Assembly (NCBI GenBank): GCA_022819825.1
Contig: JAJEGM010000010.1
Coordinates: 2,318 to 66,317 of the forward strand
Origin: Acidimicrobiia bacterium
Lineage (GTDB): Bacteria > Actinomycetota > Acidimicrobiia > Acidimicrobiales > Bin134
DNA length: 64,000 nt
Direction: 5' to 3'
A model generated the notes under the pieces. It did not search any database. It worked only from the letters and a program-made list of their open reading frames with translations, and was not told where the DNA came from. How positions within the stretch are numbered: the first letter of the stretch is position 1; each line of letters begins with the position of its first letter. Below are positions 1,896 to 58,300 of the stretch, in pieces. The translations under genes and the position numbers were made by a program.

Positions 1896-3320
1896 TTAGA
1901 CGGAGTAGTACATCTCGTACTCGAGGGGATGGGGCCGCAAGTTGACAGCGTCCACCTCCTCTTGCTTGACCTCGATGTACGACTCGATCAGCGATGTGTT
2001 GAACACATCGCCAGCCAGCAGGAAGTCGTGGTCGGCTTCGAGAGCACTCAGCGCCTCGGCCAGTGAACCAGGCACGGTCTCAATGCCGGCGGCCTCGTCA
2101 GGCGGCAAGTCGTAGATGTTCTTGTCGAGCGGCTCGCCCGGATCCATCTGGTTTTGGATGCCGTCGATTCCGGCCATCAACATGGCGGCGAACGCCAGGT
2201 AGGGGTTGGCGCTGGGATCGGGGCAGCGGAACTCCAGGCGCTTGGCCTTGGGGTTGTCAGAGATCAGCGGGATGCGGATGGCCGCGGAGCGGTTCCGCTG
2301 GGAGTAAGCCAGGTTCACCGGGGCCTCGTAGCCGGGCACCAGCCGCTTGTAGGAGTTGGTGGTGGGAGCGGCGAAGGCCAGGATCGCCGGGGCGTGGGCC
2401 AGCAGCCCGCCGATGTACCAGCGAGCCAGATCAGACAAGCCGGCGTACCCCCGCTCGTCGTACATGAGCGTGTCGCCGTCCTGCCACAGCGACTGGTGGG
2501 TGTGCATCCCCGAGCCGTTGTCGCCGTAGATCGGCTTGGGCATGAACGTGACGGTGCGACCGTGCTCGCGGGCCACGTTCTTCACCACGTACTTGTAGAG
2601 CTGCACTTTGTCGGCCATGGCCAGCATCTCGTCGAACACCATGTCGATCTCGGCCTGGCCCGCAGTGCCCACCTCGTGGTGTTGGACCTCGATGGGGATG
2701 CCCACCGATTCGAGGGCTACAACCATCTCCGAGCGCAGATCCTGGAAGGTGTCCATCGGCGACAGCGGGAAATACCCTCCCTTGTAGGGAATGCGGTGGC
2801 CGGGACTGGGAGCTCCGGTCACCGAGGGGCGACCGCTCTCGAAAATGCCCTCAGCCGAGCGAATCTGATAGCCGGCTACGTCGGGCTGGTTCTGGAAGGC
2901 CACGCTGTCGAAGATGAAGAACTCGGCTTCCGGCCCGAAGTAGGCGGCATCGGCGATTCCGGTGCTGGCCAGATAGGACAGGGAGCGGCGCACCACGCCC
3001 CGGGGATCTTTGCCGTACATCTCGCCGGTCACGGGATCCTTCACGTCGCACAGCAGCACCAAGGTCTTGCGCTTCATGAACGGGTCGAAGATCGCGGAGT
3101 CGGGATCGGGGATGAGGAGCATGTCGGAGGCGTCGATGGTCTGAAAACCGCTCACCGAAGAGCCGTCGAATCCGAGACCCTCCTCAAATACTGCTTCGGT
3201 CAGCTCGCGGATGGGCAGCGAGAAGTGGTGCTGCACACCGGGAACGTCGGTGAAGCGCATGTCCACGAACTCCGCTCCCTCAGATGCGGCTAGAGCAATG
3301 ACTTCTTGGGGAGTTGACAC
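1896..3320 (-). CDS. glnA: glutamine synthetase type I
   Basis: Contains the GS motifs FDGSS, GSGMHTHQS and NPYL. I moved the start to GTG 3320, which is preceded by AAGGAGG (rc of 3327-3333). The ORF-track extension to 3380 is rejected. Confidence 0.93.
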   Translation of the reverse strand: MSTPQEVIALAASEGAEFVDMRFTDVPGVQHHFSLPIRELTEAVFEEGLGFDGSSVSGFQTIDASDMLLIPDPDSAIFDPFMKRKTLVLLCDVKDPVTGEMYGKDPRGVVRRSLSYLASTGIADAAYFGPEAEFFIFDSVAFQNQPDVAGYQIRSAEGIFESGRPSVTGAPSPGHRIPYKGGYFPLSPMDTFQDLRSEMVVALESVGIPIEVQHHEVGTAGQAEIDMVFDEMLAMADKVQLYKYVVKNVAREHGRTVTFMPKPIYGDNGSGMHTHQSLWQDGDTLMYDERGYAGLSDLARWYIGGLLAHAPAILAFAAPTTNSYKRLVPGYEAPVNLAYSQRNRSAAIRIPLISDNPKAKRLEFRCPDPSANPYLAFAAMLMAGIDGIQNQMDPGEPLDKNIYDLPPDEAAGIETVPGSLAEALSALEADHDFLLAGDVFNTSLIESYIEVKQEEVDAVNLRPHPLEYEMYYSV

Positions 3321-38840: not shown

Positions 38841-38923
38841 TGGCGCTCTCGTTCGCCGACCCCTCCCAATTGGTCGGATTGCACAGCCCCATTGCGAGAA
38901 CTTGCTCCTAGACTGACTTCGAC

Positions 38924-41900: not shown

Positions 41901-42439
41901 AGGTGGCCGAATTCGCGGCCGTGGAGCGTCGGGTGAACCCCGGCTCTGCGGCGCTGACCGCGGCAGTGGCTGCTGGGCTGTACAAGCTCACCGCCTACAA
42001 GGACGAGTACGAGGTGGCCCGCCTGCTGCTCGACCCCAATGGCCACTATCCCGCCGCCGCGGTTGCCCAGCCCGGTGACCGCCTGGCCTGGAAGCTGCAC
42101 CCCCCAACCCTGCGGGCCTTGGGCCGCAAGAAGAAGATCGCCCTGTCAGTGAACCGCTGGCGACCAGTGGTAGCGCTGTTGGCCAAAGGCAAGCGCCTCC
42201 GGGGCACCCCCCTCGACCCCTTCGGTCGAGCCGAAGTCCGCCGAGAGGAGCGCCGCCTCCCCGCCGAATACCTCACCGCCCTCCGCCAAGCAGTAAACGG
42301 TGCCACCACCCCCGACCGCCTCCAAACCGCCCAAGCCATAGCCGAAGCCGCCGACCTCGTCCGCGGCTACGAAGACATCAAGCTGGCCAATATCGCCAAA
42401 TTCCGCTCCCACCTAGCCGCCCTCGCCCAGACACCCTGA
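38924..42439 (+). CDS. indolepyruvate:ferredoxin oxidoreductase-family protein (fused alpha/beta 2-oxoacid:ferredoxin oxidoreductase)
   Basis: 1171 aa. The N-terminus FLTGIQAMARLPLEQ...GYPGSPVGGLD matches this family. It has a TPP-binding GDGTFFHSG and a ferredoxin-like CxxCGxC...C region (CEGCGHCAEVSNC). Substrate is unknown. Confidence 0.85.
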   Translation: MTATESNRSYRLSDRFTNDSGTVFLTGIQAMARLPLEQLRADRAAGLNTAAFAAGYPGSPVGGLDSALERAVRESGESAVVLRPSVNEEYAATAVMGSQLAASRPDARYDGVIGIWYGKAPGVDRASDAIRHAMFAGADPKGGVVMLAGDDPNAKSSTLPSTSAGVLADLHIPVLYPGDPADVLELGRHAIAMSRATGLWVGMKIVANVADGSADVSLDPNRVNPVIPLHEGKPYQHRPDTRLLTPYTLDFEREIVEVRTNLALQYAELNHLNRVVVESPNAWIGIIASGITYWEVREALAVIGLDSDEAISSAGIRMLRMGLPIPFNASTIRDFAAGLEEVFVIEEKTPNVESRAKDALYNTSHRPRIVGEFDEYDQRLIKSHGALHADDLVGPLRSRLARLGDRLTPEPPVRERIPLAVNRTPYFCSGCPHNRSTVTDPGTAVGAGIGCHTMILLGGEERYGDIAGLTCMGSEGTQWIGMAPFVETPHLIQNMGDGTFFHSGQLAMTAAIAAGVNITYKLLWNGAVAMTGGQNPTGGIPLDRVCRSLLAQGVARIIITSDDPARTRHLGPPSEVDVRDRTELAEVQQELAAVAGVTVLIHDQRCAAELRRDRKRGKISPPQTRVAINHRVCEGCGHCAEVSNCLSVQPFDTPFGRKTTIDQDSCNIDLSCLEGDCPAFVTITRPKRARRKRASTPADLPVPPTPIPIPPESVDADVNIHITGIGGTGVVTTAQLIGTAAMLDGSNVQGLDQIGLSQKAGPVVSDLRITRHGRSGSNRLGDRQADLLLAFDLLVASSATGLDASDSARTAVVGSLDVVPPGAKTAHPEIDMPTADELLERVRAETRADAQFWASASDLAQMLVGDAVGANVFVVGMAVQTGLLPVTPEALETAIELNGVAVEMNTAAFRWGRWWVVDPEQLEEAIALAPAPDTHSPDWIAGGDNSAVLGPKLSDRIAGLADGDAVLAAALELFASELVRFQNRALAHRYLDEVAEFAAVERRVNPGSAALTAAVAAGLYKLTAYKDEYEVARLLLDPNGHYPAAAVAQPGDRLAWKLHPPTLRALGRKKKIALSVNRWRPVVALLAKGKRLRGTPLDPFGRAEVRREERRLPAEYLTALRQAVNGATTPDRLQTAQAIAEAADLVRGYEDIKLANIAKFRSHLAALAQTP

Positions 42440-42456
42440 TCAAGCACAACTTCCAG

Positions 42457-42496
42457 CTGCATCTGACTGCATGCCTGCTACCATGCAGTCATGCAG
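42457..42496. promoter_or_regulatory. putative vapBC operator: nested direct and inverted CTGCAT(G) repeats overlapping the vapB start codon
   Basis: The sequence is CTGCATctgaCTGCATGcctgctaccCATGCAGtCATGCAG. It contains a perfect 9-bp inverted repeat, GACTGCATG (42465-42473) and CATGCAGTC (42482-42490). The last half-site includes the ATG at 42491. Confidence 0.55.
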
Positions 42497-42787
42497 CAAG
42501 TCACCTGGAGAGCAGACAAAGAACTCGTCGCCCGAGTCAAGACGAGGGCTCAGGAACAGGAGGTATCGATGAACGCCTTTCTCACCCAGATCGCGCAGGC
42601 AGCAACCGACCCCTCAAACACATCAAGCGAAGTCGAAGAGATCAGGGCTCGGCTCAAGCTCGCGGGCCTGCTCTCTGATTTTCAGGCCCCCGAAGTGGAT
42701 CCACCTGATGAAGAGGCATTCACCGCGGCCCGTAAGCGGGCAGGGCAGGGAACCCCGCTGTCTGAAATTGTTTGCGACAATCGGTGA
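42491..42787 (+). CDS. vapB: type II antitoxin, VapB-like (ribbon-helix-helix-type N-terminus)
   Basis: 98 aa with a small DNA-binding-like N-terminus and an acidic C-terminal half. Its stop overlaps the start of a PIN-domain gene (GTGA). Confidence 0.75.
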   Translation: MQQVTWRADKELVARVKTRAQEQEVSMNAFLTQIAQAATDPSNTSSEVEEIRARLKLAGLLSDFQAPEVDPPDEEAFTAARKRAGQGTPLSEIVCDNR

Positions 42788-43215
42788 CGGCATTTCTCGA
42801 TTCATCGGCCATAGTCAAGCGCTACGCCGACGAGCCGGAAAGCCACTTGGCGCAGGGCATGTCCGAACCGGTGTTTGCCAGCGATTTGGCTGCCGTCGAA
42901 GTCCCAGCCGCGTTTTGGCGCAAGCACCGCGTCGGAGAAATCTCCGCGTCCGACGCCCAGATCATGTGCCAGCGATTCCTAGCCGATGTCTCCGCTTCAA
43001 GTCTGGAACGGAACACCGTTCTCATGAGGGTGAACGAAGACATCCTCCGCGAGGCAATCAACCTCGTCGCCCGCCATCCGTTGCGGGCATACGATGCAGT
43101 CCAACTGGCGTCTGCGCTGGCAGCGTCTCGCCTCATGGGCGGCTGCACTTTCGGATGCTTCGACCGCCAGCTCTCAACGGCCGCCGCCATCGAAGGCCTA
43201 CCCCTGCTCTGGTAG
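42784..43215 (+). CDS. vapC: PIN-domain ribonuclease toxin VapC
   Basis: 143 aa. The PIN acidic residues are in context: FLDSS (D6), AAVEV, YDAVQLA and CFDRQL. Confidence 0.82.
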   Translation: MTAFLDSSAIVKRYADEPESHLAQGMSEPVFASDLAAVEVPAAFWRKHRVGEISASDAQIMCQRFLADVSASSLERNTVLMRVNEDILREAINLVARHPLRAYDAVQLASALAASRLMGGCTFGCFDRQLSTAAAIEGLPLLW

Positions 43216-43231
43216 GCGCACGTCCGCGTTC

Positions 43232-44293
43232 TCAGATCTGGGCCTCGCGGGGATCCCAGCGCTCGCGGGCCTTGTCGCCCACCCGATTGAGGGCGAACAC
43301 GGTCATGAACATCACGATGCCAGGCACGAACACCAAGTGGGGATGGTCCTGGTAGCTCTCCTGGCCTGCTTCGATCATGTTGCCCCACGTGGGCTCGGGA
43401 GGCTGGATGCCCACGCCCAGGAAACTGAGAGAGGCTTCGGCCACGATCAATACCGCAGTCACCAAGAAGGCATACGACACCATGGGCAGGGCTACGTTGG
43501 GCATCAGCTCCCGGAAGATGACGCGCCGGTCCCCCGACCCCATGGCCTTGGCGGCCAAGACGAACTCCCGCTGGGCGAAGGTCAACGTGTTGGCCCGGGC
43601 CAAGCGGATGTAGGTGGGGATGCCCAGAAGCGACAGCTCCAGCGCCATGGTCCATTGATTTTGGGTGAACACCGTGGCCATGGCCACCAGCAGGATCAGC
43701 GGGGGGAACGCCAGCATGGAGTCGGCCAGAATCCCTACCCCGCTGTCCAGGGGCCCCCGAAAATAGCCCGCAGTGACCCCGATAATCCCGCCGATCAAAA
43801 GACCGATGGCCACGGCCCCCAAGCTGATGATCAGCGAGGTGCGGGCGCCCCACATGACTCCTCCCAGCATGTCAAGGGCCTGGATGTTCGTGCCCAGGGG
43901 ATGATCCGAGAACAGGTCCGGGCGAAGTCTCGGGGTCTCCGTCAGGGCGTTCTTCACCAATTTCGACTCGGGAAGCGGCAGCCAGGCCACGGTTATGGCC
44001 GAGAGCCCAACCAGCATCAGCCAGAAACCCGACAGCCAGGCCGAGGTGTCGAACCTCGATCCCCAGCGCCTCTGACAAAGAGCGTCCAGGCCGAAGTAAC
44101 CGCCCACGATGCCGGCCAACACCAACGCGACCCTTATCTCGGCGGTCATATCGTTTAGCACCATGGTGCCCACGAAGATCGCCGCAATGCCGATGGGCAG
44201 CAGCGGCCAGAGCCAGATCGGCCGAGGCTCGGCGCTGCGAGCTCGGACCTCAGGCTCGCCCTGGGCGATCGCGCCGAACGCCGTCTCAGACAC
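43232..44293 (-). CDS. ABC transporter permease, DppC/OppC-like (peptide/nickel family)
   Basis: Has a BPD_transp_1-type core (ARANTLTFAQREFVLAAKAMG EAA-loop region) and a long N-terminal extension. GTG start overlaps the upstream permease by 8 nt. Confidence 0.85.
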   Translation of the reverse strand: MSETAFGAIAQGEPEVRARSAEPRPIWLWPLLPIGIAAIFVGTMVLNDMTAEIRVALVLAGIVGGYFGLDALCQRRWGSRFDTSAWLSGFWLMLVGLSAITVAWLPLPESKLVKNALTETPRLRPDLFSDHPLGTNIQALDMLGGVMWGARTSLIISLGAVAIGLLIGGIIGVTAGYFRGPLDSGVGILADSMLAFPPLILLVAMATVFTQNQWTMALELSLLGIPTYIRLARANTLTFAQREFVLAAKAMGSGDRRVIFRELMPNVALPMVSYAFLVTAVLIVAEASLSFLGVGIQPPEPTWGNMIEAGQESYQDHPHLVFVPGIVMFMTVFALNRVGDKARERWDPREAQI

Positions 44294-45413
44294 GGCCCCG
44301 CCTGATTCTTGGGTCGAGGTACTGATAGGAGATGTCGATGATGGCGTTCAACAGCACATAGCCCACCGCCAGCACCAGCACACCGCCCTGCACGATGGTG
44401 TAGTTCTTGGGGATCACCCCGGTGCCCACGATCAGCTTGCCCAGCCCATCTAAGCCGAAGATGGTCTCGATGATGACCGTCCCGCCGATGAGCCGGCCCA
44501 GCGTGATTCCGGCCACGGTGATGAGAGAGAACGACGACGGCCGCAGCGCGTCGCGGAACAGTATCCGCCATGTGGGCATTCCCTTGGCCCGGGCGGACAG
44601 CACGAATTGCTCCTGAAGGGTCGACAGCATGTCGGCCCTCAACAGCCGGGTGAACACCGCTATCTCGCTCAAGGCCAATGCCAGCGCGGGCAAAAACAGC
44701 GAGCGAATCTGCTCGCGCCAGTTGTCGTCGTAGCGGTGAGAGGCCGTGCGGGGGAAGTCGGGCCACTGGACGAACACCCACATCATGAGACCGGCCACCA
44801 CCAGCGTGGCAACGGCGTACCCAAGCCACCCCGAGAAGTCGGCCCGGTCCTCGGCCAATCGGCTGATGGCCAGATAGAGCAACCGCAAAACGATCAGGCC
44901 CATGCCGATGACCCAAATCCAACGGGGGATGGACTCCCGGAACACGAAGAAGAAGATGAAAAGAAGGCCGGCCAGAAACGTCGGGACCGATATAAAGCCG
45001 AACATGGTGCCGCTCACCAACCGGTCGACCCGAGTTCCAGCCGCCTGAGCCGACCAGACCCCCAAGAAGATCGCGATGGTGAACGACATTCCCAATGCCA
45101 TGGCCGACAAGCGCAACGTGGGCCCAACGCTGCGCTGGATCAGGTCGGTTACCGGCTCATTGGGAGACCGCAACGACAGACCCAAATCGCCGCTCAGCGC
45201 ACCACTCAGCCAGTCCACGTAACGGTCGGTGATCGGCTTGTCCAGGCCCAGCGACTTTCTGACCGCCTCTAAATCCTCAATTGTGGCGTCAGTACCCAGC
45301 ATGTTCGCGGCCGGGTCGCCGGGAATCAGATCAACCAAGAAGAAAGTGGCCAATGAAACGAGGAAGAGCACCGGCACGAGCCGGACCAGCTTCAAGCCGA
45401 TCACCCGCAGCAC
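44286..45413 (-). CDS. ABC transporter permease, DppB/OppB-like
   Basis: Has the family-typical N-terminus (MLRVIGLKLVRLVPVLFLVSLATFFLV.LIPGDP) and an EAA-loop region (LSARAKGM). It is longer than usual at 375 aa. Confidence 0.85.
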   Translation of the reverse strand: MLRVIGLKLVRLVPVLFLVSLATFFLVDLIPGDPAANMLGTDATIEDLEAVRKSLGLDKPITDRYVDWLSGALSGDLGLSLRSPNEPVTDLIQRSVGPTLRLSAMALGMSFTIAIFLGVWSAQAAGTRVDRLVSGTMFGFISVPTFLAGLLFIFFFVFRESIPRWIWVIGMGLIVLRLLYLAISRLAEDRADFSGWLGYAVATLVVAGLMMWVFVQWPDFPRTASHRYDDNWREQIRSLFLPALALALSEIAVFTRLLRADMLSTLQEQFVLSARAKGMPTWRILFRDALRPSSFSLITVAGITLGRLIGGTVIIETIFGLDGLGKLIVGTGVIPKNYTIVQGGVLVLAVGYVLLNAIIDISYQYLDPRIRRGRV

Positions 45414-45466
45414 GGTGCTCTTCCTCGCTTTAGAGCTTTAGTTGCTCAGAATTGCTCCTTTTGAGC

Positions 45467-47323
45467 TCAGTTCTCGATATAGGCGTTCCCGAACAGGAAG
45501 ATCGTGGCGCCAGCCCGCTGGACACCCTTGATGTTCGGGGCGAGGGCCAAGCCCTCCTCGGTCACCGAGTAGACCATGGCGGGCAGCTGCTCCGACCACA
45601 CGCACTGCACGGCTGCAATTGCGGCCCGCTGGTCATCCACGTTCGCCGCTCCGTAGAGCTCGCCCAGCGCAGCGTCCATGTCCGGGTGGGCGAAAGCCAT
45701 CCGGTTGGAGCCGCTGGTGGACAGGAGGTTGTCGTTGAGCGACGCCACCCAAGTGGCACCGTCGGCGTTGAAGCCCCAACCGGCCATCTCGTAGTCGGCC
45801 TGGATGATGACCCTGGGAATCAGCACGGTTGTGACGGGACCGAGGTCCACCTCAATATCGAAGCCGGCGGCCTCCAGCATTCCCTCTACCGCCTGGGCGA
45901 TCTCGGGTCCGGGATCGGTGTCGGCGTGGACCAGCAGCATGGAGCCGTCCCAGCCAGTGTCAGCCTTCACTTCTTCAACCAGCGCCGCGGCGGCATCGGG
46001 ATCGTAGCTCGGTGCCTGATCGGCGCATTCCTGCAACTCGGGCGACCACAGCAAGGTGCCCTCAGCAGCAATGGCGTTGGTGGTCTTGAGCTTGCCCTCG
46101 AAGGCTCGCTCGTTGATGATGTCCCGGTTGATGGCGTGGTGGATGGCCCGGCGGATCCTGATGTCCTTGCCGATGACATCGGCACCACGGACGCCCTGGT
46201 TGAACAGGAACAGCCCGCCGATGTTCTGATCCTCAGAGCTCAGAATTGCACCGGCCTCCCGAGCGTCGGCAAACACCCGGGGATCACGCAGGAAGGCGGC
46301 GTTGAAGTCGCCGGCCTGGAATGCCTCCCAGTTGGCCACCGAGCTGCCCGGGAAGGTGAACTCGATCTCCTCGATGCACACCGGGCCGCCCCAGTAGTCG
46401 TCCCGGGCCCGCAGCACGGTTCGCACGTTGGGCTCCACCTCGGCCACCTCATAGGGGCCGAAGCTGGCTGCGTTGACCAGTTCGGGGGTTACCGCCATCC
46501 GGTTGCGCACCAGTCGGGCTGCGCTGGTTTCCTCGGTGGCGTTGGCCGCCTCTTCATCCAGAAGCTGGGCGATGATTCGCGGGTTCACGATCATGCCGGG
46601 CTCGTCGCCCAAGAGCGTGTGGAACGTGCTCCACCCTCGATGGAGTCGGAATATCACGGTGCTGTCATCGGGGACTTCGGTGTTGTCGAAGTCGATGAGG
46701 CCCACCGAGCCGGCCGCCCGGTTGTTCATTCCGTCGCCCCGGGAGTCGAAGAACCGGAGCATCGAGTCGACCACATCTTGGGCAATGAACGCGTCGCCGT
46801 TGCCGTAGGTGATGCCCGAGCGGATCTTCAGTGTCCACTCGGTGAAGTCGTCGTTGGGGGTCAGCGACTCTGCCGCATGGCCGTTGGACACGCCAGCCGC
46901 GGGGTCGAACGCCATCAACACGTCCCACACGTTCACTATCTGGGTTCCGCCTACCAAGGCGCCGCTGCTGCCGGTCGGGTCCATGTTGGCGTTGGGTGAG
47001 AACACCGCGTAGTTGACCTTGGTGCCCGGCATTGTGGCTTCGCAGCCATCCATCATCTCATCTTCGGCGGGCGGCTCCTCGCCGTCGTCAGAGGGCTCCG
47101 GCGCGGCAGCGTCATCGTCGCCGTCGTCGGCTGGCGCGGGCGCGTCGTCGCCGTCGTCGGCTGGCGCGGGCGGCTCGTCACCGTCGTCAGACGGCTCAGC
47201 CGGCGCGGGCTCATCCGGGCCAGTGGTTACCCCGTCATCGTCATCGTTGCCACAGGCTGCAGCCACCAGGCCGAAGACCATCAGCAATGCCAGCAGCTTC
47301 AATAGCCATGAACTCATGTGCAT
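45467..47323 (-). CDS. ABC transporter substrate-binding lipoprotein, family 5 (peptide/nickel)
   Basis: Has a signal peptide with lipobox LVAAAC, a ~90-aa acidic Asp/Pro/Ala low-complexity linker, and then an SBP_bac_5-like body. Confidence 0.8.
   Translation of the reverse strand: MHMSSWLLKLLALLMVFGLVAAACGNDDDDGVTTGPDEPAPAEPSDDGDEPPAPADDGDDAPAPADDGDDDAAAPEPSDDGEEPPAEDEMMDGCEATMPGTKVNYAVFSPNANMDPTGSSGALVGGTQIVNVWDVLMAFDPAAGVSNGHAAESLTPNDDFTEWTLKIRSGITYGNGDAFIAQDVVDSMLRFFDSRGDGMNNRAAGSVGLIDFDNTEVPDDSTVIFRLHRGWSTFHTLLGDEPGMIVNPRIIAQLLDEEAANATEETSAARLVRNRMAVTPELVNAASFGPYEVAEVEPNVRTVLRARDDYWGGPVCIEEIEFTFPGSSVANWEAFQAGDFNAAFLRDPRVFADAREAGAILSSEDQNIGGLFLFNQGVRGADVIGKDIRIRRAIHHAINRDIINERAFEGKLKTTNAIAAEGTLLWSPELQECADQAPSYDPDAAAALVEEVKADTGWDGSMLLVHADTDPGPEIAQAVEGMLEAAGFDIEVDLGPVTTVLIPRVIIQADYEMAGWGFNADGATWVASLNDNLLSTSGSNRMAFAHPDMDAALGELYGAANVDDQRAAIAAVQCVWSEQLPAMVYSVTEEGLALAPNIKGVQRAGATIFLFGNAYIEN
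47111..47200. repeat. 30-bp in-frame tandem repeat inside the SBP linker, encoding (A)PAPADDGDD units
   Basis: GTCGCCGTCGTCGGCTGGCGCGGGCG occurs at 47117 and again at 47147. Degenerate copies flank these. Confidence 0.8.
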
Positions 47324-47443
47324 TTCCCCCTCGTGGAACTTGGTTCCGACACTCTAGGGAAATAGGACCATACGGGCAACCGAGACGCCTGGTCTCCCCT
47401 GAATAGAGCCAAGCGGTGAGAGCTGCGACATGTCTGTTTTCGG

Positions 47444-48349
47444 CTAAGCAAGAACCGAGTCGATGAACTCGCGCATGATGGCGGCGCATTCTTCAGGCTG
47501 CTCCAGCTGGAGCATGTGGGTGGCGTCGGGCAAAAAATCGTAGTCCACGCTGGATATGTCGCTGAGGTTCAGCGACGGCAGGTACGAAAAGGGCAGCGTG
47601 GGATCGGCACCGATGACCTTGACGGGACAGCGGACTTTGGCGAAGTCAATGAACACTCCGAACACGCTGGCGTAGTCGACTATCTGAGCTTCGTACTCCC
47701 GAGGGCATCGCAGCTCGAAGCCATCTCCGTCTGGGGATTCACGCAGAGTGGAGTCGGCCAGCAAGTCAATCGTCCCGGGCACCGCTGCCTTGTAGGTGGG
47801 GAATATCCCCCACAATTCGGTGAATGAGTTCTTCGCATTGAACTGATGCGAGCGGCGCCGGGTTGACTTCGCCATGCGGTTTGCGGCTTCTTCAAAGTCT
47901 CGAAAGCTCCTGCCCGGCTTGCACAGAGGGGGGTCGAACAGCACGAGTGCCGAATATTCGCTTCCCTTGGATTCGGACAGAAGGGGTGTGAGCGATGACA
48001 CCGAGTGGAACACGCCGATCTGTGCTTTCTGACCGAATTGCTCGCCGATCTCCTCAAGGATGCGGTCGTGGTCGCGGACCAGCGTCGGGACATTGTGATT
48101 TTCCAAGTCGCCGACCGCATTCCACCCATGGTTTCTCATGTCATGGACGATGAGGTCGAAGTCTTGGGTCAGGAGCGACCAAAACGGATAGTAGAGGTCG
48201 ATGGCCAAACCGTTGCCATGGCTGAGAATCAGTCGAGTTCCATCGGGGTTTCCATGGCGGCGAAGCAATATTGATGATTCATCGTCCACTTTGACTTCGT
48301 GGACGGACAGCGGCTCGGGAATACTCCAGATCGGATCTTGCTCCGTCAC
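47444..48349 (-). CDS. alpha/beta hydrolase (candidate chain-release or editing hydrolase of the PKS operon)
   Basis: 301 aa with an oxyanion-type HGNG, a nucleophile-elbow-like GVFHSVSS and a C-terminal DATHM (His). It is the last gene of the operon, starting 2 nt after the PPTase stop. The release or editing role is inferred from position only. Confidence 0.7.
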   Translation of the reverse strand: MTEQDPIWSIPEPLSVHEVKVDDESSILLRRHGNPDGTRLILSHGNGLAIDLYYPFWSLLTQDFDLIVHDMRNHGWNAVGDLENHNVPTLVRDHDRILEEIGEQFGQKAQIGVFHSVSSLTPLLSESKGSEYSALVLFDPPLCKPGRSFRDFEEAANRMAKSTRRRSHQFNAKNSFTELWGIFPTYKAAVPGTIDLLADSTLRESPDGDGFELRCPREYEAQIVDYASVFGVFIDFAKVRCPVKVIGADPTLPFSYLPSLNLSDISSVDYDFLPDATHMLQLEQPEECAAIMREFIDSVLA

Positions 48350-48351
48350 GG

Positions 48352-49056
48352 TTACGGGCTTACCTCATAGGCGATGGCGGCGGCGAACTCCCTCGTTCCC
48401 ATATCCTCCAAGCACCAAGTCGTCTCGGGGATTTGAACAAACTGGCCAACGCTCTTGGCCGCCCCCCGGCGCATGTCTTCGGGGATCTCCAATTCTGCGA
48501 CTTTCATGGAGAGGCCCTTGCCGTGGGCTTTCACCAGCGCCTCTTTGATCGTCCAGAAACGAAAGAACTCGTGCAGCTTCTGGCACCCGTCAAGCGATTC
48601 CAACTCAGCCTTCTCATGCGAGCTGAACACGCCTTCAATGAGGTTCTCGAGGTTTCGGCGAGAGGCCCGCTCCTCAACATCCACACCTAGGCGGCCCCTG
48701 GGAGCCACGGCAATCAGCCCGTGGTTGCCGCTGTGGCTCACGTTGAAGCTGATGGAAGCAGGCAGGCCGTTGACCAGGGCAAACGGCTTGCCGTGTTTGG
48801 CGGCCTCGAACCCCAGCGATTCGTTTGGACAACCGAATTGGCGGCCAAGAATGGCACGGAGCGCGGCACGGCACAGCACATACCGCCGTTGAGCGGTTGG
48901 GGATTGAAAGCGCTCCCAACGCGAGCGCTCTTCCCCGTCAAGCCACGTAAGGGCCTGGGCTTCGCGCCCCTGATCGGGGATCAGGTCGACGTGGAAGACG
49001 GCAATAGCACCGATGCTCTTGAACCGGCGCAACCAGCTATCTGAGTCGGTGATCAA
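48352..49056 (-). CDS. 4'-phosphopantetheinyl transferase, Sfp type
   Basis: Contains GKPF, FNVSHSG, GVDVEE and FWTIKEALVKAHGKG. Confidence 0.88.
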   Translation of the reverse strand: MITDSDSWLRRFKSIGAIAVFHVDLIPDQGREAQALTWLDGEERSRWERFQSPTAQRRYVLCRAALRAILGRQFGCPNESLGFEAAKHGKPFALVNGLPASISFNVSHSGNHGLIAVAPRGRLGVDVEERASRRNLENLIEGVFSSHEKAELESLDGCQKLHEFFRFWTIKEALVKAHGKGLSMKVAELEIPEDMRRGAAKSVGQFVQIPETTWCLEDMGTREFAAAIAYEVSP

Positions 49057-49295
49057 CCAGAGGATTCGAGGTGGTTGATGAGGTCTTGAGGTGTCAAGAG
49101 CTCGGCAAACTCTTCAGCGGAGATGTCGGTGCCGAACTCCTGGTTCACCATTTGCCAAAAAGCCACGATGTCTGAAGAAGCGACGCCTGCATCGGCAACG
49201 TTGCGAGACAGGTCCAAGGGCTGACCCGCTTCTCGCCCATCAATCTCCAGCGTCTGGTCGACGATGGCCCTGATTCGCTCTTCAGTGGAAGACAT
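49053..49295 (-). CDS. discrete acyl carrier protein
   Basis: 80 aa with a four-helix ACP pattern. The attachment motif reads DAGVASSD, aligned to DLGxDSLD, with Ser40 at the Ppant position. The RBS AAGGAG lies upstream, and the stop overlaps the PPTase start by 4 nt. Confidence 0.78.
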   Translation of the reverse strand: MSSTEERIRAIVDQTLEIDGREAGQPLDLSRNVADAGVASSDIVAFWQMVNQEFGTDISAEEFAELLTPQDLINHLESSG

Positions 49296-49355
49296 TCACT
49301 TGCTCCTTTGCAGCCGATTGAAAGCGGGGAAAGTGTATCAAGGGGAGCGAAAGTG

Positions 49356-52300
49356 TCAATCGTCCTCGGAGCCCCTCGACTGGGGGGGCGCTTCTACCCA
49401 GAAGCGCTGCCGCTGGAACGGGTAGTCGGGCAGCGAGATCCGACGACGCGCCTCGCCCTGGAACAAGCTCTCGAATTGAATCGCCTGCCCATCGGCATAT
49501 TCCGCCGCAATGACTGCAAGCGGGTCATGGCCGCTCTCAGGCGCCGTCACACCGCTCTGAACTCGCTGCTCGCCGACCTCATGGAGAGCGCTGAGTTGCT
49601 GGCGGAGCGACTTGGCGTCGCTGAACACCAACCCAGCCCGATGGGAGAAGTGGCTTCGCCCCATGCTTGCCGTCCACGCCAGGTCGGAGAGCAGCGGATC
49701 GGTTGCCGCACCGGCTGCTGAAAGCTCCTCAGCGTGCTCGTCGAGCCAGGAGAGATACCGCTGGGCCAGCTCTCGCAACGCCGCCGGGGTCTTGGCCGAC
49801 AACGGCAGCAGCCGTCTTGTCGGCGGCTCCGATCCCCCATCGAGCGGCGATTCCCCGGCTGCCGCGGCTTGCGGTGACCCCACCGGTTGCCACGGCCTTC
49901 TTAATCCATCGGATTCATCAGCAGTGGGTTGGTACCCCTCAACCACGATGTGCGAATTGGCGCCGGAGATTCCGAATGAGTTGACCGCGGCCAACGATTG
50001 GCGGCCCCGGTCTCCTGGCCATTCAATCGGCTCGGTGGCCACCCTCAACGGCATCCTCGCCCAATCGATCTCGGGACTCGGCTCGCTGAAGTGCAGGTGC
50101 CTGGGCAGCGTCCCATGCCTCATCCCCAGCACCACCTTGATCAAGCTGGCCATCCCGGCCGCGCCCTCAAGGTGCCCGATGTTGGTCTTCACCGATCCTA
50201 TCCATACCGGGTGGTCTTCCTCGCGCCCCTGGCCATAGACGGCGGCAATGGCGCTGGCCTCCACTGCATCGCCCATTGCGGTGCCTGCTCCGTGGGCTTC
50301 CACATAGTCCACCTCATCCGCTGAGATGCCAGCCCGGGCCAGCGCCTCCACCATGACCCGCTCTTGAGCCCGACCGCTAGGGACGGTGACGGCAAGACCC
50401 GCCCCGGTCTGGCTCACCGCCGACCCTCGGACAACCCCCCAGATCCGATCGCCGTCGGCCTCGGCATCGCCCAACCGCTTCAGCACCACAACGCCGCATC
50501 CCTCGCCGCGCACATAGCCGTCGGCCGAGGCATCAAACGACTTGCACTGCCCCTGCGATGACAGCATGTCGGCCTCGACCAGCGCATTGGTAACCGCAGT
50601 CGACAAGATGACGTTCACGCCTCCCACCAGGGCGATGTCGGTCTCCCCTCGCCGAAGGCCCTCCACCGCTTGGTGTACGGCAAACAGCGACGACGCGCAG
50701 GCCAAGTCCAGCGGCACTGCCGGTCCTTCCATGCCCAGCGAGAACGCCACCTTTCCCACGGTCACGCTTCCCGCGGTGTTGAGATGGCCTCCGGCTCGAC
50801 CGCTCCTCTGGATGACGCCCCGGTATTCGCTGACACCGAGACCGATGTACAGCCCGCTGCGGCTTCCCTTCAGACGTTCGGGATCGATAGCGGCATCCTC
50901 AACCGCCTGCCAGCTGGTCTCCAGCAATAGCCTCTGGAGCGGATCAATCGACCACGCCTCTCTCGGCGCAACCCGGAAGAACTGAGGATCAAAGGCGTCG
51001 AGTCCCTCGATGAACGAACCCCTGCGGTAGATGGCTTCGTCGGCGGCCGGATCGCCGAGGACCCCATCCCATGAACCGCCGTCTTGGCGTCCGTCGGTAA
51101 CCGTGTTCTCGCCGGCCTCCAGCAGGTGCCAAAAGGCCGATAGGTCCTCGGCTCCGGGAAACCGACAGGCCATGCCAACGATGGCGATCCCCTCGTCGTC
51201 CGACTGGACAACCCGGAGCCGGGATACCTCGACCGCTTCTTGGGGTTCGGCCATTTCGCCGGCCTGTCCGAACTCCTGGGACAAGTGCCGGGCCAGTCCG
51301 GTGACGTCCGGGTAGTCGAAGATCGCGGTGTTCGACACGGTGTACTCGCCAGCGAACGCCCGGTTCAGCCGGTTCCGCAGCTCCACCACCATCAGCGAGT
51401 CCATGCCCAGGTCGGCGAACACAGCCGATTCGTTCGGCAGGTCGGGCAACCGCATCACGGCTTGCAGCTCTCGTTGCAAGTGCGAGATCAACTTCTCCTC
51501 GCGCTCTGCGGCGGCGGCATTCCTGAGGTCGTCCAACAGATCGACCGACGATTCCTGGGATTCGCCAGAGGCATCTGCCGACAGCAGATCCTCCAAGAAG
51601 AGCGATTGGGCGTCGGGGCCTTCGGAGACCACCTGCCAGTCGACCGCCGCCACCATGCCCATGGTCACGTCTTGGCGCACCAGATGGTCGAACGCCTTCA
51701 ATCCCTGTTCGGGGGTGAGCCACCCCGTGCCCGCTGCTTCCAGCTGCCCCGCGATCCGCTCCCGGTGCTCTTCGGCCTCACCCAGACCCGACCACGCCCC
51801 CCAGGCAATCGACTGCCCGGGCAGGCCCAGTGAACGGCGGTGGGCGGCGAGCTGGTCCAGGAACGCATTGGCGGCGGCGTGGTTCGACTGCCCTGAATTG
51901 CCCAAGACCCCGGCCACACTGGAGAACAACACGAACAGATCGAGATCACGGTCTTCAGTGGCCCGATGCAGATGCCAGGCCCCCAGCATCTTCGGCCACA
52001 GCACCTCCTCGAACTTCTCCCAGGTCTGGTTGGTGAGCGCGCCGTCGGACAGCACGCCCACGCTGTGGATCACACCCCCGAGCGGCGGTAGATCGGCGTC
52101 GATCCTGGCCAGCATCTGGTCGATGGCGGATGGGTCGGTCACATCGGCCAGCTCGACTTCCACCGCCACTCCCTGTCGACGGAGCTCGCTGATTGCTTCC
52201 TCCGCCTCGGGATCGGGGGGCCGCCGCCCGTTCAACACGATGGCCCCCGCGCCTCGGCCGGCCAGCCAGCCGGCAACCGCGCAGCCAATGCCCCCTAGGC

Positions 52301-55300
52301 CGCCGGTCACCAGATAGGTCCGGTCGTCCCTCAGCCGTCCCGTCTCAAGAGGGGAACCGGCCAGAACCAGCTTGCCGATGTGCCGGGCGGACTGCATGTA
52401 TTTCATCGCCGACCCCGCCTCGGCCAACGACCACCGAGTGTGTACCAGCGGTTCCAGCTCGCCGGCTGCCACCCGGGCCACCACGCGCCTGAGGGCGTCT
52501 CCGGGCACCGCGGGATTCTGTTCTTTGAGAACGTCGAGCTCCAAGATCCAGTAACCCACGTCGGGCCGGGTCGTGGCCATCTCCTCCTGGCTGAGGATGT
52601 CCACCCGAGCCAGCTCCACAAAACGGCCGTTTTGGGCCAAGCAAGACAGGCTGGCGTCGATGAAGCCCGGGCCGGTCAAGCTGTTGAGCACCACGTGGAC
52701 GCCCTCGCCCCCGGTGGCCTCGAGGATTTCCTCCGCGAAATCGGTCTGACGGCTGTCGAATACGTGCTCCACGCCCAGCGACCGCAGATACCCCTGTTTC
52801 GGAGCGCTCGTGGTGGCGAACACCTCGGCCCCCGCCGCCTGGGCCAACTGCACCGCGGTCAGCCCTACCCCTCCGGTTCCGGCGTGGATTAGCACCCGTT
52901 CGCCTGCCTTCAGTTCGGCGAGATCGAAAGACAGCGCAGACGTAACAAAGACGGTGGGCAACGTGGCCAGCGCGGCGGGCGAAATGCCCGAGGGGGCCAG
53001 TGCCACCAACTCCTCGGTGGTAACCACCCCAGAGCCCAGCGTGCCGAACCCCAATCCGGCCACTCGGTCGCCCACCGATACCGTGGACACGTCGGCGCCC
53101 ACCTCAACCACCCGGCCGCAGAACTCCTCGCCCAACAAGCCCGCCCCGATGACGCCCAACGAGCGGAACATGTCCAAGAAGTTGAGCCCGGCGGCTTCCA
53201 CCGCCACTCGTACGTCCCGCTCTCCCAACTGCACTGGCGGGTGAGGCTCTGGCTTGACCCCTTCCAGGGCACCGCCAGAGTCAGCGGCCAGCAACCAGCT
53301 CACTTCTCCCGCCGGATCAGGCAGATTCGGGCGACCCGACCCCACACCAGCCCGATCCAGCCGGGCCGCTTGGCGCAGTCCTTGGCGGTAGGCGATGTGG
53401 GTTTCTGCATCGGGATAGAACAGCTCATTGGCCAAGTCGGAGAGCGGCACCACACCGCCAGGATCCAAATCGATCATCCTGGGGTTGAGGTGAGGCGCTT
53501 CGCGGCCCACCACCTTCCCAAGGCCCCATAGCATGGCCCCGGCGATGCCCTCGGCGGGCTCGTGCTCCAGCACTTGGGCCCCCTGGGTTACCAGCCAAAC
53601 CCCGTTTGTGGGAGCGGCGTCGGCATCACCCATCCCCTGCAACAAGGCCAGCGCGCTCTTGCCTGCCTTCGCTGCGTCTTCCGCAAACTGCTCAGTGGCG
53701 GCCCGCGACCCCCGGCCGTCCAGCGACACCAAGTGGACAACACCGCGGAGTGAGGCATCAGGAGAAAGACTTTCGAAGAATGACTGCCACGACTCCCGTT
53801 GGTTCATCGCCAGGGAAACCCGGACAACTCCGGGCTCGTCCAGCAGGGGCTGATCATTGATCGGAGCGCCGTAGCTAACCAGCGCCACAGTCTGGTTTCG
53901 GGCCGCCAACTCCTGCGCGAGGTTCTCGGCCGAATCGTCAGAATCCGATGCCAAGATCCATACGCCTGGCTGTTCGCTCACCTCTGCGGGCCCCTGGGCC
54001 ACAATCACCCCGCGATCAGGCTGTCGGCCGGTGTCAGGTGGGTCCACACCCAGAACCTCTGCCGCCGGGAAACCGGAGTCTTCCAGCGCCTGGAGCCACA
54101 CGTCGGGACTGGTAAGGGCGTGGTGCGGGCGATAGTGGTCAGAAAACCGCCACCAACCGTCGAGCGGTCCGAAAGAAAGGTCCAGCCAGCCCAGGCCGCG
54201 GAGGGTTTCCAACGCCACCAGATGGCCCGATGGCGCGAGCAGCCGTCGACAATTCCCCAGCGTCTCATCCAGGAACCGGGTGGCGTGCAGCACATTGGAA
54301 GCAATGACCAGGTCGTAGCCGTGGCGGTCGAAGCCCTGCTCCACGGGTTCGACCTCGATGTCCAGCACCCGGTAGTCGATCGACTCCTCCGCACCGCCGA
54401 ATCGCCTCTCCGCCTCGGCGAAAAAACCGGCCGAGATGTCGGTGTAGGTGTAGTCGAAGCGCCCAGCGGGAAGCTCGGGCAGCACCGACGCCGTCGCAGA
54501 ACCGGTGCCCGCTCCCACCTCCAGCACGCGCAGCCGTCGGCCCTCCGGCAACTCGGCCAGCAGCGCTGCCACCGCGTCGCCCAGCATCCGGTTTGAGGCC
54601 TGGGCCATCGGCGCCTTCACATACAGATCGGCGGCGCTGGGCTCACCGCTGCCAAACAGCAGGGTCAGCGGATCGGCGTTGCCCACAACCACCTCGGCCA
54701 ATGCCCCGGCGCATCGCCGAAACAGCCCGATCTCCATGGTTCCGTGCGGGTATTGGCCCTCCATCCAGTCGGCCCGGGCCGCCGGATCGCCGGCCAGCAC
54801 CTCGGGCAGGGGGTCATCGGAGCCGGCTCTCACGGTGAACTCGTCGCCGACTTCCTCCAGCGCGCCGGCTTTGGCCATCATCTCGAGCATCCGGCGGAAC
54901 AGGCGTCCATGCTCGGGGGCAACCCCCAACTGCTCCCTCAGCTCTTCGGGCACCACCGTGTCGCCCGCGGTGCGCACCCACCCCAGCCGATCCAAGGCCA
55001 AACGGGCATACGACCACGCCAGCCGCTCGAGATCGGCCAGAAACCCGACCCGGCTCTCGGCCTCAACCCCCTCTGCCGCCAGGTACTGGGTGAACGGCTC
55101 TGAGCCCGCGGCAATGGCACTCGGTTGGGGCAGGAAATCGGCGGGCAATATCCCTGGGGCGAGAGGGCTGTCTCGCCAGACGATTTCATAGAGGAGATCG
55201 TCGAGGCTCCCGGCGGCCGACAACAGCGCGGCCCGCGTGGCCCGCTTCACCGTATAGCCGCTCAAACCCCCGAGCACGGTGCCGCTCTGGTCGTAGAACA

Positions 55301-58300
55301 CCAGATCTCCGGTAAGAACCTCAGGTGTTCCCTCTGACGCTTCGGCGGCCTCCTTCAGCCGCGCATGGCATACCAACTGGTCGGGCATGGGTCCGGTGAG
55401 CCACAAGCGCTCCCATCCGAAGGGCAGATAGGCCACCCCGTCATCGCCTCCGGCCCCGCTGCGAGCCTCGGCCATGACCTGGAAGCAGCCGTCCAAGAGC
55501 AGCGGATGCACTTCGATGCCGCCTCGGTCAATGGTTTCGGGCAGCGACAATTCGCCCACCGCTTCGCCTTGGGAGGCCCACAGCGCCCGCAGGGTGCGAA
55601 ACGGCGCACCGAGCTCGACCCCTGCGCCCGTACGAGAGCGGTAGAACTCCGAGACGTCTCTGGGTTCCAACCCGGCCTTCAGTCCATCCAAGTCGACGCT
55701 TTCGGCCCCCTCAATCCGCCCGGCCTCCGAATGGGCCAGGCCCTCGGCGTGCTGCGTCCATCCGTCCTCACCAGGGCCCCGGCTGTAGATCTCAAATCGA
55801 GCGGGCGCCCTCGGATCGGCCTCGTCCAAAACGAACTGCACTTGGCGACCCTCGGGCGCCGCCCCTTCATCGGAGTCCGGCTCAGGAAAGACCATCGGGC
55901 TGAACATCTGGAGATCTTCCACCACAAAGCTGCGGCCGGTTGGGGTTGATGGCCGACCGTTTCCATTGGCAGCCAGCGCCGAGACCGCCATGGTCCCGTA
56001 CAGCGCGCCCGGTGTGATCACCTGCCCATACACCCGGTGGTCACTCAGCCACGGCGGATCGGAGGGATCCATTTCCGTCTCAAACTGAAGCTCGCCTCGG
56101 GGGGATTCGTGGCAAATGCCGAGCAATGGGTGCCCCGCGCCGGATCGACGGCGTTTTGCGGCTTCCACCCAGTGGCGTTGGCGTTGGAACGGGTAGCCCG
56201 GAAGCGATAGGCGGCGTCGGGACTCGCCTCCGTACAGGCCCTCAAAGCTGATATCGAGCCCAGACTGGTACGCCCCCAACACCGCGTCGAGGAATCCGCA
56301 GCCATCCTCGGGGGTCGGTGTTCGATCCGATGGCCGCTTCATGCTCGACACCACAGTCGGCTCGGCCACCGCGGCCTGGGCAGGCCAGGACAGAGCCGCC
56401 ATGGGGCCGAGCACCGCCCCCGGGCCGACTTCGATGACCGCGTCCACCCCCAATTCGGCCAGCGCCTGCACGCTATTGCGAAACTCCACTGGTTGGCGGG
56501 CCTGGCGACGCCAATACGCCCCGTCCATCGCTTGGCCATCGTCCAGCACTTGGCCCGTCATGCTGCTCACCACGGTGAGCGAAGGCGCGGCCACCACAAG
56601 CTCGGTGAGCAGCCCCTCAATGCGGTCCAGAATCGGTTCCACCATGGCGCTGTGGTATCCGGCGCTCTTCTCCAGTCGCCGGACCCGCACCTCTTCGGCC
56701 TCAAAACGCTGGAGCAGCGCCTCAACATCGGCGGTCGGTCCGCTCACCATCAAGTGGGCCCCGTTGTCGGCGGCAATGGCCAGCCGCGAGTCACCCGAGG
56801 CGGCGCATTGCTCCTCCACTGCGGCGGCCAGCACTGATGCCGGGGCGAACACTGCGGCCATCGCACCGGGCTCTGGCAACTCCGACATGAGCTTGCCTCG
56901 CCCAGCGGCGAAACGAAGGCCGTCCTCCAGGCTGAGCACGCCCGCGGTGTGAGCCGCCGCGATCTCCCCCAGGCTGTGCCCCACCACCGCATGGGGCCGA
57001 ACCCCCAGGCTCGACCACAGTGCGGTGAGCGCACACTCCAACGCGTATATGGCGGGCTGCGTCCACGCCGGATCGTCCAGGTCTCCGTCGGCGTCGGGCC
57101 ACCCGAACATCACCCCCAGCAGCGACGTGCCCCGCTCGTGGCGAAACACCTCCTCGCAACGATCCAAGATCGCCCGCACCACCGGCTCGCTCTGGTAGAG
57201 CGACTCCCCCATGCCCACCCACTGGCTGCCCTGCCCGGTGTAGGCAAAGGCCACCTTTGGTGCGACCGACGACCCGGCCACCTCATCACCAGATTCCACC
57301 AGCGCATCGAGCTTGTCCCGCAGCGACTCGGCGTCGGTGAACACCACACCGGCCCGATGGGAGAAATGGCTGCGGCCGATCCCGGCCGTCCAGGCAGTGT
57401 CAGCCAGCACCTCCCCCGACGGGGGACCAACATCGTCGTCCAACCATTTGAGATAGCCCTGAGCCAGTTCCTTCAGAGCCTTGTCCGACTTCGCCGACAA
57501 GGGCAGCAGCCTCGCGGAGCGCGCCATGGCGTCCGCCGGTATGGCCACTGCGTCATCCGCGGTGGCGACGGCAACAGGCCGAGGAGGACCTGTCGGCCAC
57601 CGTTCCTCGCCGGGCTGGGCTGGTTCGCAGTCGCCCACCCCATAGGCCTCCACGATGACGTGGGCGTTGGTGCCCGACCAGCCGAACCCGCTCACCCCGG
57701 CGATGGACATGCGGTCGGAATGGCGAGGCCAGGGGGTGGGCTCAGCCGTCACCTTCAGCGGCACCTGGTCCCAGTCGATCGCCGGGGTCGGATTCTCATA
57801 GTGCAGGTGCGGGGGGATCACGCCCTGCTTCATCGACAACATCACCTTGACCAGGCCGGCCACACCGGCGGCCGGCTCCAAATGGCCGACGTTGGTCTTC
57901 ACCGACCCGATGAGCAGCGGCTGATCTGCGTCGCGCTCTTGGCAGTAGGCGCCAACGGCAGCCTCCAACTCAATGGGGTCGCCCACCGGGGTCCCGGTGC
58001 CGTGCGCCTCCAGGTAGTCCACCTCAGAAGGCTGAACCCCCGACCGGGCCAACGCCTCGGTGATCACCAGTTCTTGGGCCACCCCGTTGGGCACAGTCAA
58101 CCCGGTGCTGGCGCCGTCCTGGTTCAGCGCCGATCCCCGGATCACGCCCCAGATCCGGTCGCCGTCGGCCTCGGCATCGCTCAGCCGCTTCAGCACCAGG
58201 ATGCCGCAGCCCTCGCCTCGCACATACCCGTCGGCGGCAGCGTCGAACGTCTTGCACTTCCCATCGGGGGCCAGCATCCCGGCATTGCCCCGCAATTCGA

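Follow-up and report, generated by a model that had tools for sequence, protein, structure and literature searches.

Small type I polyketide synthases (PKSs) that have a single module and are of the sup type (sponge symbiont ubiquitous PKS) occur in sponge symbionts only, independent of taxonomy (PMC3908369, PMC4245539, PMC9426513), and their genes dominate sponge metagenomes (PMC3908369, PMC4245539, PMC9426513, PMC9864124, PMC4210886). Mid-chain methyl-branched fatty acids have been proposed as the product in this literature, with the domain set, which includes a methyltransferase, pointing to methyl branches (PMC4245539). For clone pAPKS18, SupE is given as a permease (PMC3908369). In the present work, we analyze a PKS locus in a stretch of 64,000 nucleotides from an Acidimicrobiia bacterium (GenBank assembly GCA_022819825.1, contig JAJEGM010000010.1, positions 2,318 to 66,317), which is called the window in the following and whose coordinates are counted from its first nucleotide. 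The locus is very probably a member of the sup cluster. Its synthase ends in a second ketosynthase (KS2), from whose module the acyltransferase (AT) has been lost in evolution, and is followed by a separate gene for an acyl carrier protein (ACP).

According to published descriptions, sup genes outnumber all other PKS genes in high-microbial-abundance sponges, and they swamp PCR screens for drug-relevant PKSs. The cluster, supA to supE, goes back to Fieseler et al. 2007 and Hochmuth et al. 2010. In the former study, supA is reported to end in ACP-KS and to be followed by supB (ACP), supC (phosphopantetheinyl transferase, PPTase) and supD (hydrolase). In the literature on sup, we found no experimental demonstration of the product or of what the additional KS and ACP do.

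The locus in the window is similar to sup in being mono-modular and fatty acid synthase (FAS)-like, with one full module of the order KS, AT, dehydratase (DH), C-methyltransferase (cMT), enoylreductase (ER), ketoreductase (KR) and ACP, in having an AT of the malonyl type, and in having a permease as neighbor, like the SupE of clone pAPKS18. It differs in that the host is acidimicrobial, a class that the literature cited above does not mention for SUP, and in that two permease paralogues are present.

Other described systems resemble parts of this arrangement. The swf cluster, with SwfA (KS-AT-DH-ER-KR-ACP), SwfB and SwfC, is also sponge-symbiont specific, mono-modular and FAS-like, but it lacks the cMT, the second KS and the set of discrete ACP, PPTase and hydrolase, and has a reductase-sulfotransferase and a radical S-adenosylmethionine enzyme (PMC3908369). 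Iterative, fully reducing type I synthases of the fungal LovB/LovG type and those resembling mycocerosic acid synthase (MAS), whose products are released by an alpha/beta hydrolase in trans, share with the present locus the order KS-AT-DH-(cMT)-ER-KR-ACP, the absence of a thioesterase (TE) domain and the presence of a separate alpha/beta hydrolase, and MAS as well as LovB can be recognized as relatives of the KS. Unlike SupA, however, these systems have neither a second KS nor a discrete ACP, and the hydrolase of the locus, SupD, shows no specific similarity to LovG or to any characterised thioesterase.

The end of the synthase, on the other hand, resembles trans-AT PKSs, in that KS2 has behind it a linker domain (LD, also known as the flanking subdomain) and, at the C-terminus, the LPxYPF..W wrap, but no AT. 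The trans-AT structures 4QYR, 4ZDN, 4Z37 and 7ZMA align end to end with KS2 and its tail, and a KS that carries the linker domain and the wrap without an AT is therefore an ordinary and stable arrangement. The location of the carrier protein of the KS2 module on another polypeptide is also reminiscent of split trans-AT modules. In contrast to trans-AT PKSs, there is no free-standing AT gene in the window, module 1 has an integrated AT, and KS2 is a paralogue of the cis-AT-type KS1 of the same protein, with the cis-AT CurL as its closest solved relative.

Results and Discussion

Identity of the locus

The PKS, here called SupA, is encoded by an open reading frame (ORF) at 49356–58949 on the minus strand, where all window features discussed below are located unless indicated otherwise. 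It has 3197 residues, and the ORF, its translation and the Pfam matches give the architecture KS1-LD-AT-DH-cMT-ER-KR-ACP1-KS2-LD-(no AT)-post-AT linker. For comparison, the GTDB species were scanned with one genome each, which yielded 321 related stretches. The best 80 of these were examined and the domains of the window were mapped onto them, while further counts were made over 82–84 family entries. The same architecture as in the window was found in these 80 related loci, with the order KS-AT-DH-cMT-ER-KR-ACP-KS-LD in nearly every locus examined.

All 80 loci are from metagenome-assembled genomes (MAGs) of sponge symbionts, many of which have sponge-derived names (Ca. Poriferisocius, Ca. Spongiisociaceae), in agreement with the occurrence described in the literature, and they span at least six phyla, the host groups being Acidimicrobiia, Dehalococcoidia, Gammaproteobacteria, Thermoanaerobaculia, Spirochaetia, Gemmatimonadota and others. 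The window itself has ca 92% nucleotide identity over 20 kb to two Acidimicrobiia MAGs (Ca. Poriferisocius-like host). An ACP, a PPTase, an alpha/beta hydrolase and an NCS2 permease surround the PKS both here and in most relatives, and the contigs of relatives that were found with the C-terminal tail show the same domain order, followed by ACP, PPTase and hydrolase. On the basis of the host range, the domain set, the permease, the published descriptions and the supA–supD gene set, we assign the locus to the sup cluster with high confidence.

Long-read frameshifts and contig breaks often divide supA into many short called genes in public metagenome assemblies (L001–L003 and P0001–P0012 in our set), and protein-database matches to the C-terminal tail of SupA are fragments of 88–257 residues.

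The second module and its missing AT

The initial annotation of the window had described the module order with a second KS at the end, the residues Cys2751, His2886 and His2926 in KS2, the presence of both linkers in both modules with only about 30 residues between them in module 2 before the protein stops, the excision of the AT from that module, a discrete 80-residue ACP 60 nucleotides downstream, and the absence of a trans-AT gene. The present calculations bear out each of these points, as detailed in this and the following sections. The alignment of the two KS-linker regions that it had proposed gave a clear result, while the proposed structure prediction was successful for the linker domain but not for the KS core.

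KS2 comprises residues 2586–3017 (49899–51194; Pfam and motifs). Its catalytic residues Cys2751, His2886, Lys2921 and His2926 were identified, the cysteine and the two histidines in the motifs DLAC(2751)ASS, EAH(2886)GAGT and NIGH(2926)LE, respectively. Behind KS2 there is a linker domain, LD2, at residues 3044–3126 (49572–49820), recognized by the second of two matches each to PF22621 and PF22336 (the CurL-like PKS_C and RhiE-like linker families). A segment of ca 31 residues, here called the scar, occupies the former site of the AT according to the alignment of module 1 with module 2 (residues 3127–3157, 49479–49571), and the post-AT linker follows without an AT in front of it (residues 3158–3190, 49380–49478, located by the string ...ISLPDYPFQRQRFWVEA). 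SupA stops 10 residues past the ...FWVEA motif, with the stop codon at 49356–49358.

In module 1, the corresponding elements are the KS-AT linker domain LD1 (residues 478–560, 57270–57518; first PF22621/PF22336 matches), AT1 (residues 561–880, 56310–57269; Pfam and tblastn) and the post-AT linker (residues 881–935, 56145–56309, located by the string ...LSLPGYPFQRQRHWVEA). AT1 has the motifs GHSLGE and SAGYHS and is of the malonyl type, the family motifs being GHS[LVI]GE and xA[YF]HS.

The two modules match closely outside the AT. The linker strings are found at residues 481–505 and 525–550 in module 1 and at 3047–3071 and 3097–3122 in module 2, and the post-AT strings at 901–930 and 3158–3187, respectively. 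In BLASTP, KS2 with its tail has 51% identity to KS1 with its linker over 609 residues, and the post-AT segments of the two modules give a separate match with 54% identity (E=2e-14). The similarity between the linkers of the two modules is judged from these alignments to be far above chance. The gap between the linker and the post-AT linker is 35 residues in module 2 compared to ca 350 in module 1, which means that ca 315 residues, that is, the AT, are missing from module 2.

No second AT was found at any level that was searched. Pfam gives a single Acyl_transf_1 match in SupA (residues 568–873), tblastn with AT1 over the 64-kb window returns AT1 alone (the next best match has E=0.32), the flanking genes scanned with Pfam contain no AT, and the related loci have no AT besides AT1 except for dead relics and second sup copies. 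Pfam also shows that SupA carries no TE domain and no loading domain before KS1. No acyl-activating enzyme, that is, a fatty acyl-AMP ligase (FAAL) or other ligase, was found in the cluster by Pfam in the window or the related loci, and no docking domains are evident.

The AT-free end is a property of the family. In ca 76 of the 80 loci, closed chromosomes included, the ORF ends 153–227 residues after KS2, right behind LPxYPF..W, and an end just past this motif is seen in all but 2–4 of the related loci. Likewise, the relatives found with the AT-less tail as query all end a few residues past YPFQR..W.

Two loci, L081 from an unclassified bacterial MAG and L083 from a member of the Gemmatimonadota, have ca 430 residues after KS2, and the alignment to module 1 of the window places a relic AT between the linker domain and the post-AT linker (L081:16376–18934 and L083:16274–18832). 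In these relics, GQGSQW has become GEEGHR or GEEGAR, GHSLGE has become GAGSGE or GHGVGE, and the small subdomain, the one with the specificity motif, has been deleted. They are catalytically dead ATs that stand midway between a complete second module and the AT-free end. Since a dead AT is still carried at this position in L081 and L083, the AT of the other members has really been lost: as judged from the alignments, a once complete second module had its AT inactivated and then deleted, while LD2 and the post-AT linker remained. In the KS tree (see below), the KS2 domains of L081 and L083 are not found together at the base of the KS2 clade. This hints at a recurrent complete deletion of the AT, but the indication is weak, given the short internal branches.

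The linker domain and the post-AT wrap are kept in every surviving AT deletion. In KS-AT didomains, these two segments pack on the KS, which agrees with their retention here. An AlphaFold2 model of KS2-LD gives pLDDT values of 72–91 for the linker domain (residues 456–540 of the construct), but the KS2 core is unusable, with a mean pLDDT of 45 due to the shallow alignment, and the scar also has low pLDDT.

Constraint, ancestry and class of KS2

Considering that the module has lost its AT, it is important to establish the state of its KS. In an alignment of 84 KS2 sequences of the family, the Cys-His-Lys-His set is present in 82, the exceptions being one truncated sequence and L083, in which the first catalytic histidine is replaced by asparagine. 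KS1 has the same set in 83 of 83 entries, a count that includes some mislabelled KS2 sequences. The ratios of nonsynonymous to synonymous substitution rates (dN/dS), obtained from a reference set of 10–12 acidimicrobial relatives, are 0.145 for KS2, 0.18 for LD2 and 0.105 for the post-AT linker, to be compared with 0.13 for KS1 and 0.10–0.18 for the other domains of module 1. The scar is the fastest-evolving segment (0.35), while the discrete ACP has the lowest value in the operon (0.042). From these values, KS2, its linkers and the discrete ACP are evidently under purifying selection, and KS2 is predicted to be a functional ketosynthase of the condensing type.

In a neighbor-joining tree of 75 KS1 and 80 KS2 domains of the sup family, the KS2 domains without exception fall into a single clade that is separate from KS1, from which it follows that the duplication happened once, before the family spread. 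The mean identity between KS1 and KS2 is 57%, and the mean pairwise identity is 0.64 within KS2 and 0.71 within KS1.

The comparison with the cis-AT and trans-AT classes was made in terms of bit scores against solved structures, not by a tree with reference clades. For both KS1 and KS2, the best solved relative is the KS-AT didomain of the cis-AT CurL, followed by other cis-AT modules, and the trans-AT ketosynthases score below these. Against CurL, KS2 scores ca 421 bits over the KS-LD stretch and 432 bits with the whole chain, compared to 369 for PksJ. The trans-AT structure 7ZMA, which has the top score, was rejected as the closest structure, as this score is the sum of two KS matches of ca 297 bits each. 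Taken together, the scores characterize KS2 as a cis-AT-type paralogue of KS1, and it would thus not be a recruit from a trans-AT system.

Two other classes were considered and rejected. The first is the non-elongating KS0, which the initial annotation had named as an outcome that would overturn its interpretation. KS0 domains, known from trans-AT PKSs, usually lack the HGTGT histidine, while in KS2 all four residues are in place, and their presence in 82 of the 84 family members means that KS2 is not a KS0. The second is a KSQ decarboxylating loader, but every KS2 examined has cysteine, not glutamine, at the active site.

The discrete ACP and the hydrolase

The gene for the discrete ACP, supB, is located at 49053–49295 and encodes 80 residues (PP-binding, 3.2e-08) with the attachment site at Ser40. 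It begins exactly 60 nucleotides past the PKS stop codon, with a Shine-Dalgarno sequence, AAGGAG, 7 nucleotides upstream of the ATG. The supC gene (48352–49056) encodes a 234-residue Sfp/HetI-like PPTase (PF01648 and PF22624; NCBIfam HetI is the best match with 1e-30, which is below the cut-off), and supD (47444–48349) an alpha/beta hydrolase of 301 residues (Abhydrolase_6) that is a candidate release enzyme. The start of supC overlaps the stop codon of supB by 4 nucleotides, and supD begins 2 nucleotides beyond supC; supB, supC and supD follow supA in one operon.

A profile search finds SupB in 65 of 83 loci, and in most loci supB is 43–173 nucleotides downstream of the PKS on the same strand. 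The 67 SupB homologues have identities of 63–98%. The attachment serine is invariant across phyla, but the usual aspartate before it is missing, the motif being G-V-(S/A/P/N/T)-S in place of the usual G-x-D-S. The integrated ACP1 (residues 2491–2556, 51282–51479; PP-binding), on the other hand, has the canonical LGMDS(2518)L, with GMDSL in 81 of 82 relatives. A HetI-like PPTase is always found near supB, and the unusual motif together with this dedicated enzyme suggests that SupB may need a specialised PPTase.

Further information comes from loci in which the cluster is duplicated. In both L014 and L038, each PKS is trailed by its own discrete ACP, which argues for KS2 and ACP being cognate pairs. 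L014:1–13560 (Acidimicrobiia MAG VYDF01000110) has two sup clusters in tandem, and the second PKS has no C-methyltransferase, as seen from the DH-ER spacing of ca 750 nucleotides compared to ca 1900. It nevertheless keeps KS2-LD and its own divergent SupB, with 56% identity to that of the window, and the KS2/ACP unit is therefore independent of the methylation. L038:700–20411 (Ca. Aldehydirespirator MAG OZ241894) has a tandem pair of complete sup PKS genes in the order supA-supB-supD-supA'. Several sup paralogues are carried by some symbionts.

SupD has invariant His44-Gly45 (the HG oxyanion motif), Ser116, Asp249 and His278, and is on this basis predicted to be a serine alpha/beta hydrolase with an invariant Ser-Asp-His triad. 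Searched as a single sequence it gives no PDB relative, and with a profile it gives generic esterase/lipase relatives only; there is no close solved or named relative. The nucleophile elbow, F-H-S-V-S, is unusual, with phenylalanine where a small residue is normal. Cys241 and Cys288 are also invariant, as is a long block, R214-C215-P216-R217...E220-A221.

Mechanistic considerations

We now discuss what KS2 and SupB might do. The initial annotation had considered a split module that the AT of module 1 would load, or a KS serving in transfer or release. The interpretation that we consider probable, though by no means assured, is that they constitute a split, AT-less elongation module that receives malonate in trans from AT1 and is off-loaded by the hydrolase. 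In this mechanism, module 1 would build a malonate-derived, methyl-branched, saturated acyl chain on ACP1, which by collinearity would then move to Cys2751 of KS2. SupB would be converted to the holo form by SupC and malonylated in trans by AT1, the only AT of the cluster, or failing that by the cellular FabD. KS2 would condense the chain with malonyl-SupB, and SupD would release the SupB-bound product. This product would be a 3-oxoacyl thioester, unless the KR, DH and ER of module 1 also act on it. Elongation is favored over mere transfer because the ancestral module 2 had an AT and the residues for decarboxylation have been kept.

A number of observations weigh against this mechanism or the assignment behind it. 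In 18 of the 83 loci there is no SupB in the fetched DNA, although in many of these the PPTase is at the upstream edge of that DNA and supB may lie outside it. The L083 locus, whose KS2 has lost a catalytic histidine, also has no SupB-like gene in its fetched DNA, where a permease gene follows instead. This shows that module 2 can decay in some lineages, and in that of L083 it may be doing so. The loading of SupB, elongation rather than transfer by KS2, and the role of SupD are all deduced from sequence, and the probable membership in sup is based on secondary descriptions and the supA–supD gene set.

Another option is that KS2 does not elongate at all but acts as a gatekeeping transacylase, passing the finished chain unchanged from ACP1 to SupB, and from there to lipid-assembly enzymes or to SupD, with no loading of malonyl. 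It would account for a module 2 without AT and with no reductive domains after KS2. The very strong constraint on SupB is what one would expect for a carrier that is recognised by several partners, and in a type I synthase that has no TE, the chain must be off-loaded in some way. However, the retention of the four catalytic residues over many phyla speaks for selection for decarboxylative condensation, and the ancestral module 2 had its own AT and was hence an elongating module. We therefore consider this scenario unlikely, although it is the one that survives best among the alternatives.

A more speculative scenario is that KS2 and SupB act as a re-entry ramp from the type I PKS into type II fatty acid elongation. 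Here, SupA would make only part of the lipid. A fatty-acyl primer would be extended in module 1 by a single C2 unit that is methylated and fully reduced, and KS2 would catalyze the first condensation beyond the alpha-methyl branch so formed and place the chain on SupB, a discrete ACP that would be open to the type II FAS enzymes. The probability of this scenario is low, and we regard the proposal as a long shot. If true, it would account for the formation of mid-chain, singly methyl-branched fatty acids by one module, for the AT having become dispensable, as SupB could be loaded by FabD, and for the constraint on SupB, which is stronger than that on any other protein of the operon.

Slightly lower still is the probability we assign to a priming role, in which KS1 is fed with a starter from SupB. 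This starter would be malonyl that KS2 has decarboxylated, or an acyl group that SupD attaches as an acyltransferase. It is common for a discrete ACP to carry the starter of a PKS whose first domain is a KS, SupA starts directly with KS1, and the PDB relatives of SupD are generic esterases or lipases only. On the other hand, KS2 is C-terminal to ACP1, which is the position of a downstream module, its active-site cysteine is not the glutamine of KSQ loaders, and the cluster contains no FAAL or ligase.

It was also considered that KS2 and its tail are a decaying remnant without function, next to an unrelated ACP gene. The AT is indeed gone, with AT decay visible in two lineages, one of which also has the histidine-to-asparagine change, and KS2 evolves somewhat faster than KS1, according to the pairwise identities given above. 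But the dN/dS values of KS2, LD2 and the post-AT linker (0.10–0.18) equal those of the working domains of module 1, the catalytic residues are kept across phyla, and SupB both co-localises and duplicates with SupA. These comparisons bring the proposal of a functionless remnant close to being refuted, and it is thus highly improbable.

Finally, an assembly or frameshift error that hides an AT-ACP continuation of the PKS, which the initial annotation had pointed out as a possible pitfall, can practically be dismissed: noisy long-read metagenome contigs of relatives are broken by frameshifts and the KS1/KS2 repeats could confuse assemblers, but only 60 nucleotides lie between the stop codon and the Shine-Dalgarno-preceded ACP gene, no AT-like sequence is present in any frame, and the same end in ca 76 of 80 independent assemblies, including closed chromosomes, excludes such an error.

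Remaining domains and neighboring genes

The remaining domains of module 1 are as follows. KS1 comprises residues 7–435 (57645–58931; Pfam), with Cys181, His316 and His356 in the motifs DTACSSS, EAHGTGT and NVGHLE. The DH is found at residues ca 940–1250 (55200–56132; PF21089 and PF14765), the C-methyltransferase at ca 1457–1627 (54069–54581; Methyltransf_12/23/11/25), the ER at ca 1910–2196 (52362–53222; ADH_N, ADH_zinc_N and ADH_zinc_N_2), and the KR at 2211–2387 (51789–52319; PF08659).

Directly upstream of the PKS there is an NCS2/xanthine-uracil-type, SupE-like permease of 575 residues (58969–60696; PF00860), followed by a second, paralogous NCS2 permease of 588 residues (60710–62476; PF00860). 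A permease flanks the PKS in many related loci. The permease family is very large in the protein database: a search for SupE-like permeases gave 4968 matches with E<1e-30 among 8000 candidates scored, and the named ones are from Acidimicrobiia, Chloroflexi and Dehalococcoidia MAGs. The name Sup appears neither among these 4968 matches nor in exact-cluster look-ups of ten SupB variants.

The G+C content is 0.60–0.635 over positions 42000–50000 of the window, a region with ABC-transporter genes, supB–supD and the 3' end of supA, compared to 0.65–0.69 on both sides. At 36405–42787 on the plus strand, there are genes for a duplicated family III CoA-transferase of 811 residues and an indolepyruvate-ferredoxin-oxidoreductase-like protein of 1171 residues (TPP_enzyme_C, POR and DUF6537), as well as a small HicB-like ORF; these genes have no evident link to the PKS.

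Conclusion

The AT-less KS2 with a separate ACP is a standard feature of a known, abundant family and not a new kind of system. The initial annotation had missed both the identity of the locus as sup and the fact that a KS-LD without an AT is an ordinary arrangement. What the present analysis adds is a set of handles on the role of KS2 and SupB, namely the dead-AT intermediates in two lineages, the single origin of KS2, its conserved condensation residues, and the discrete ACP, which is cognate to KS2, is under extreme constraint and has an atypical motif at its attachment site. The dead-AT intermediates, together with the selection data, sharpen the question of what KS2 and SupB do in this family.

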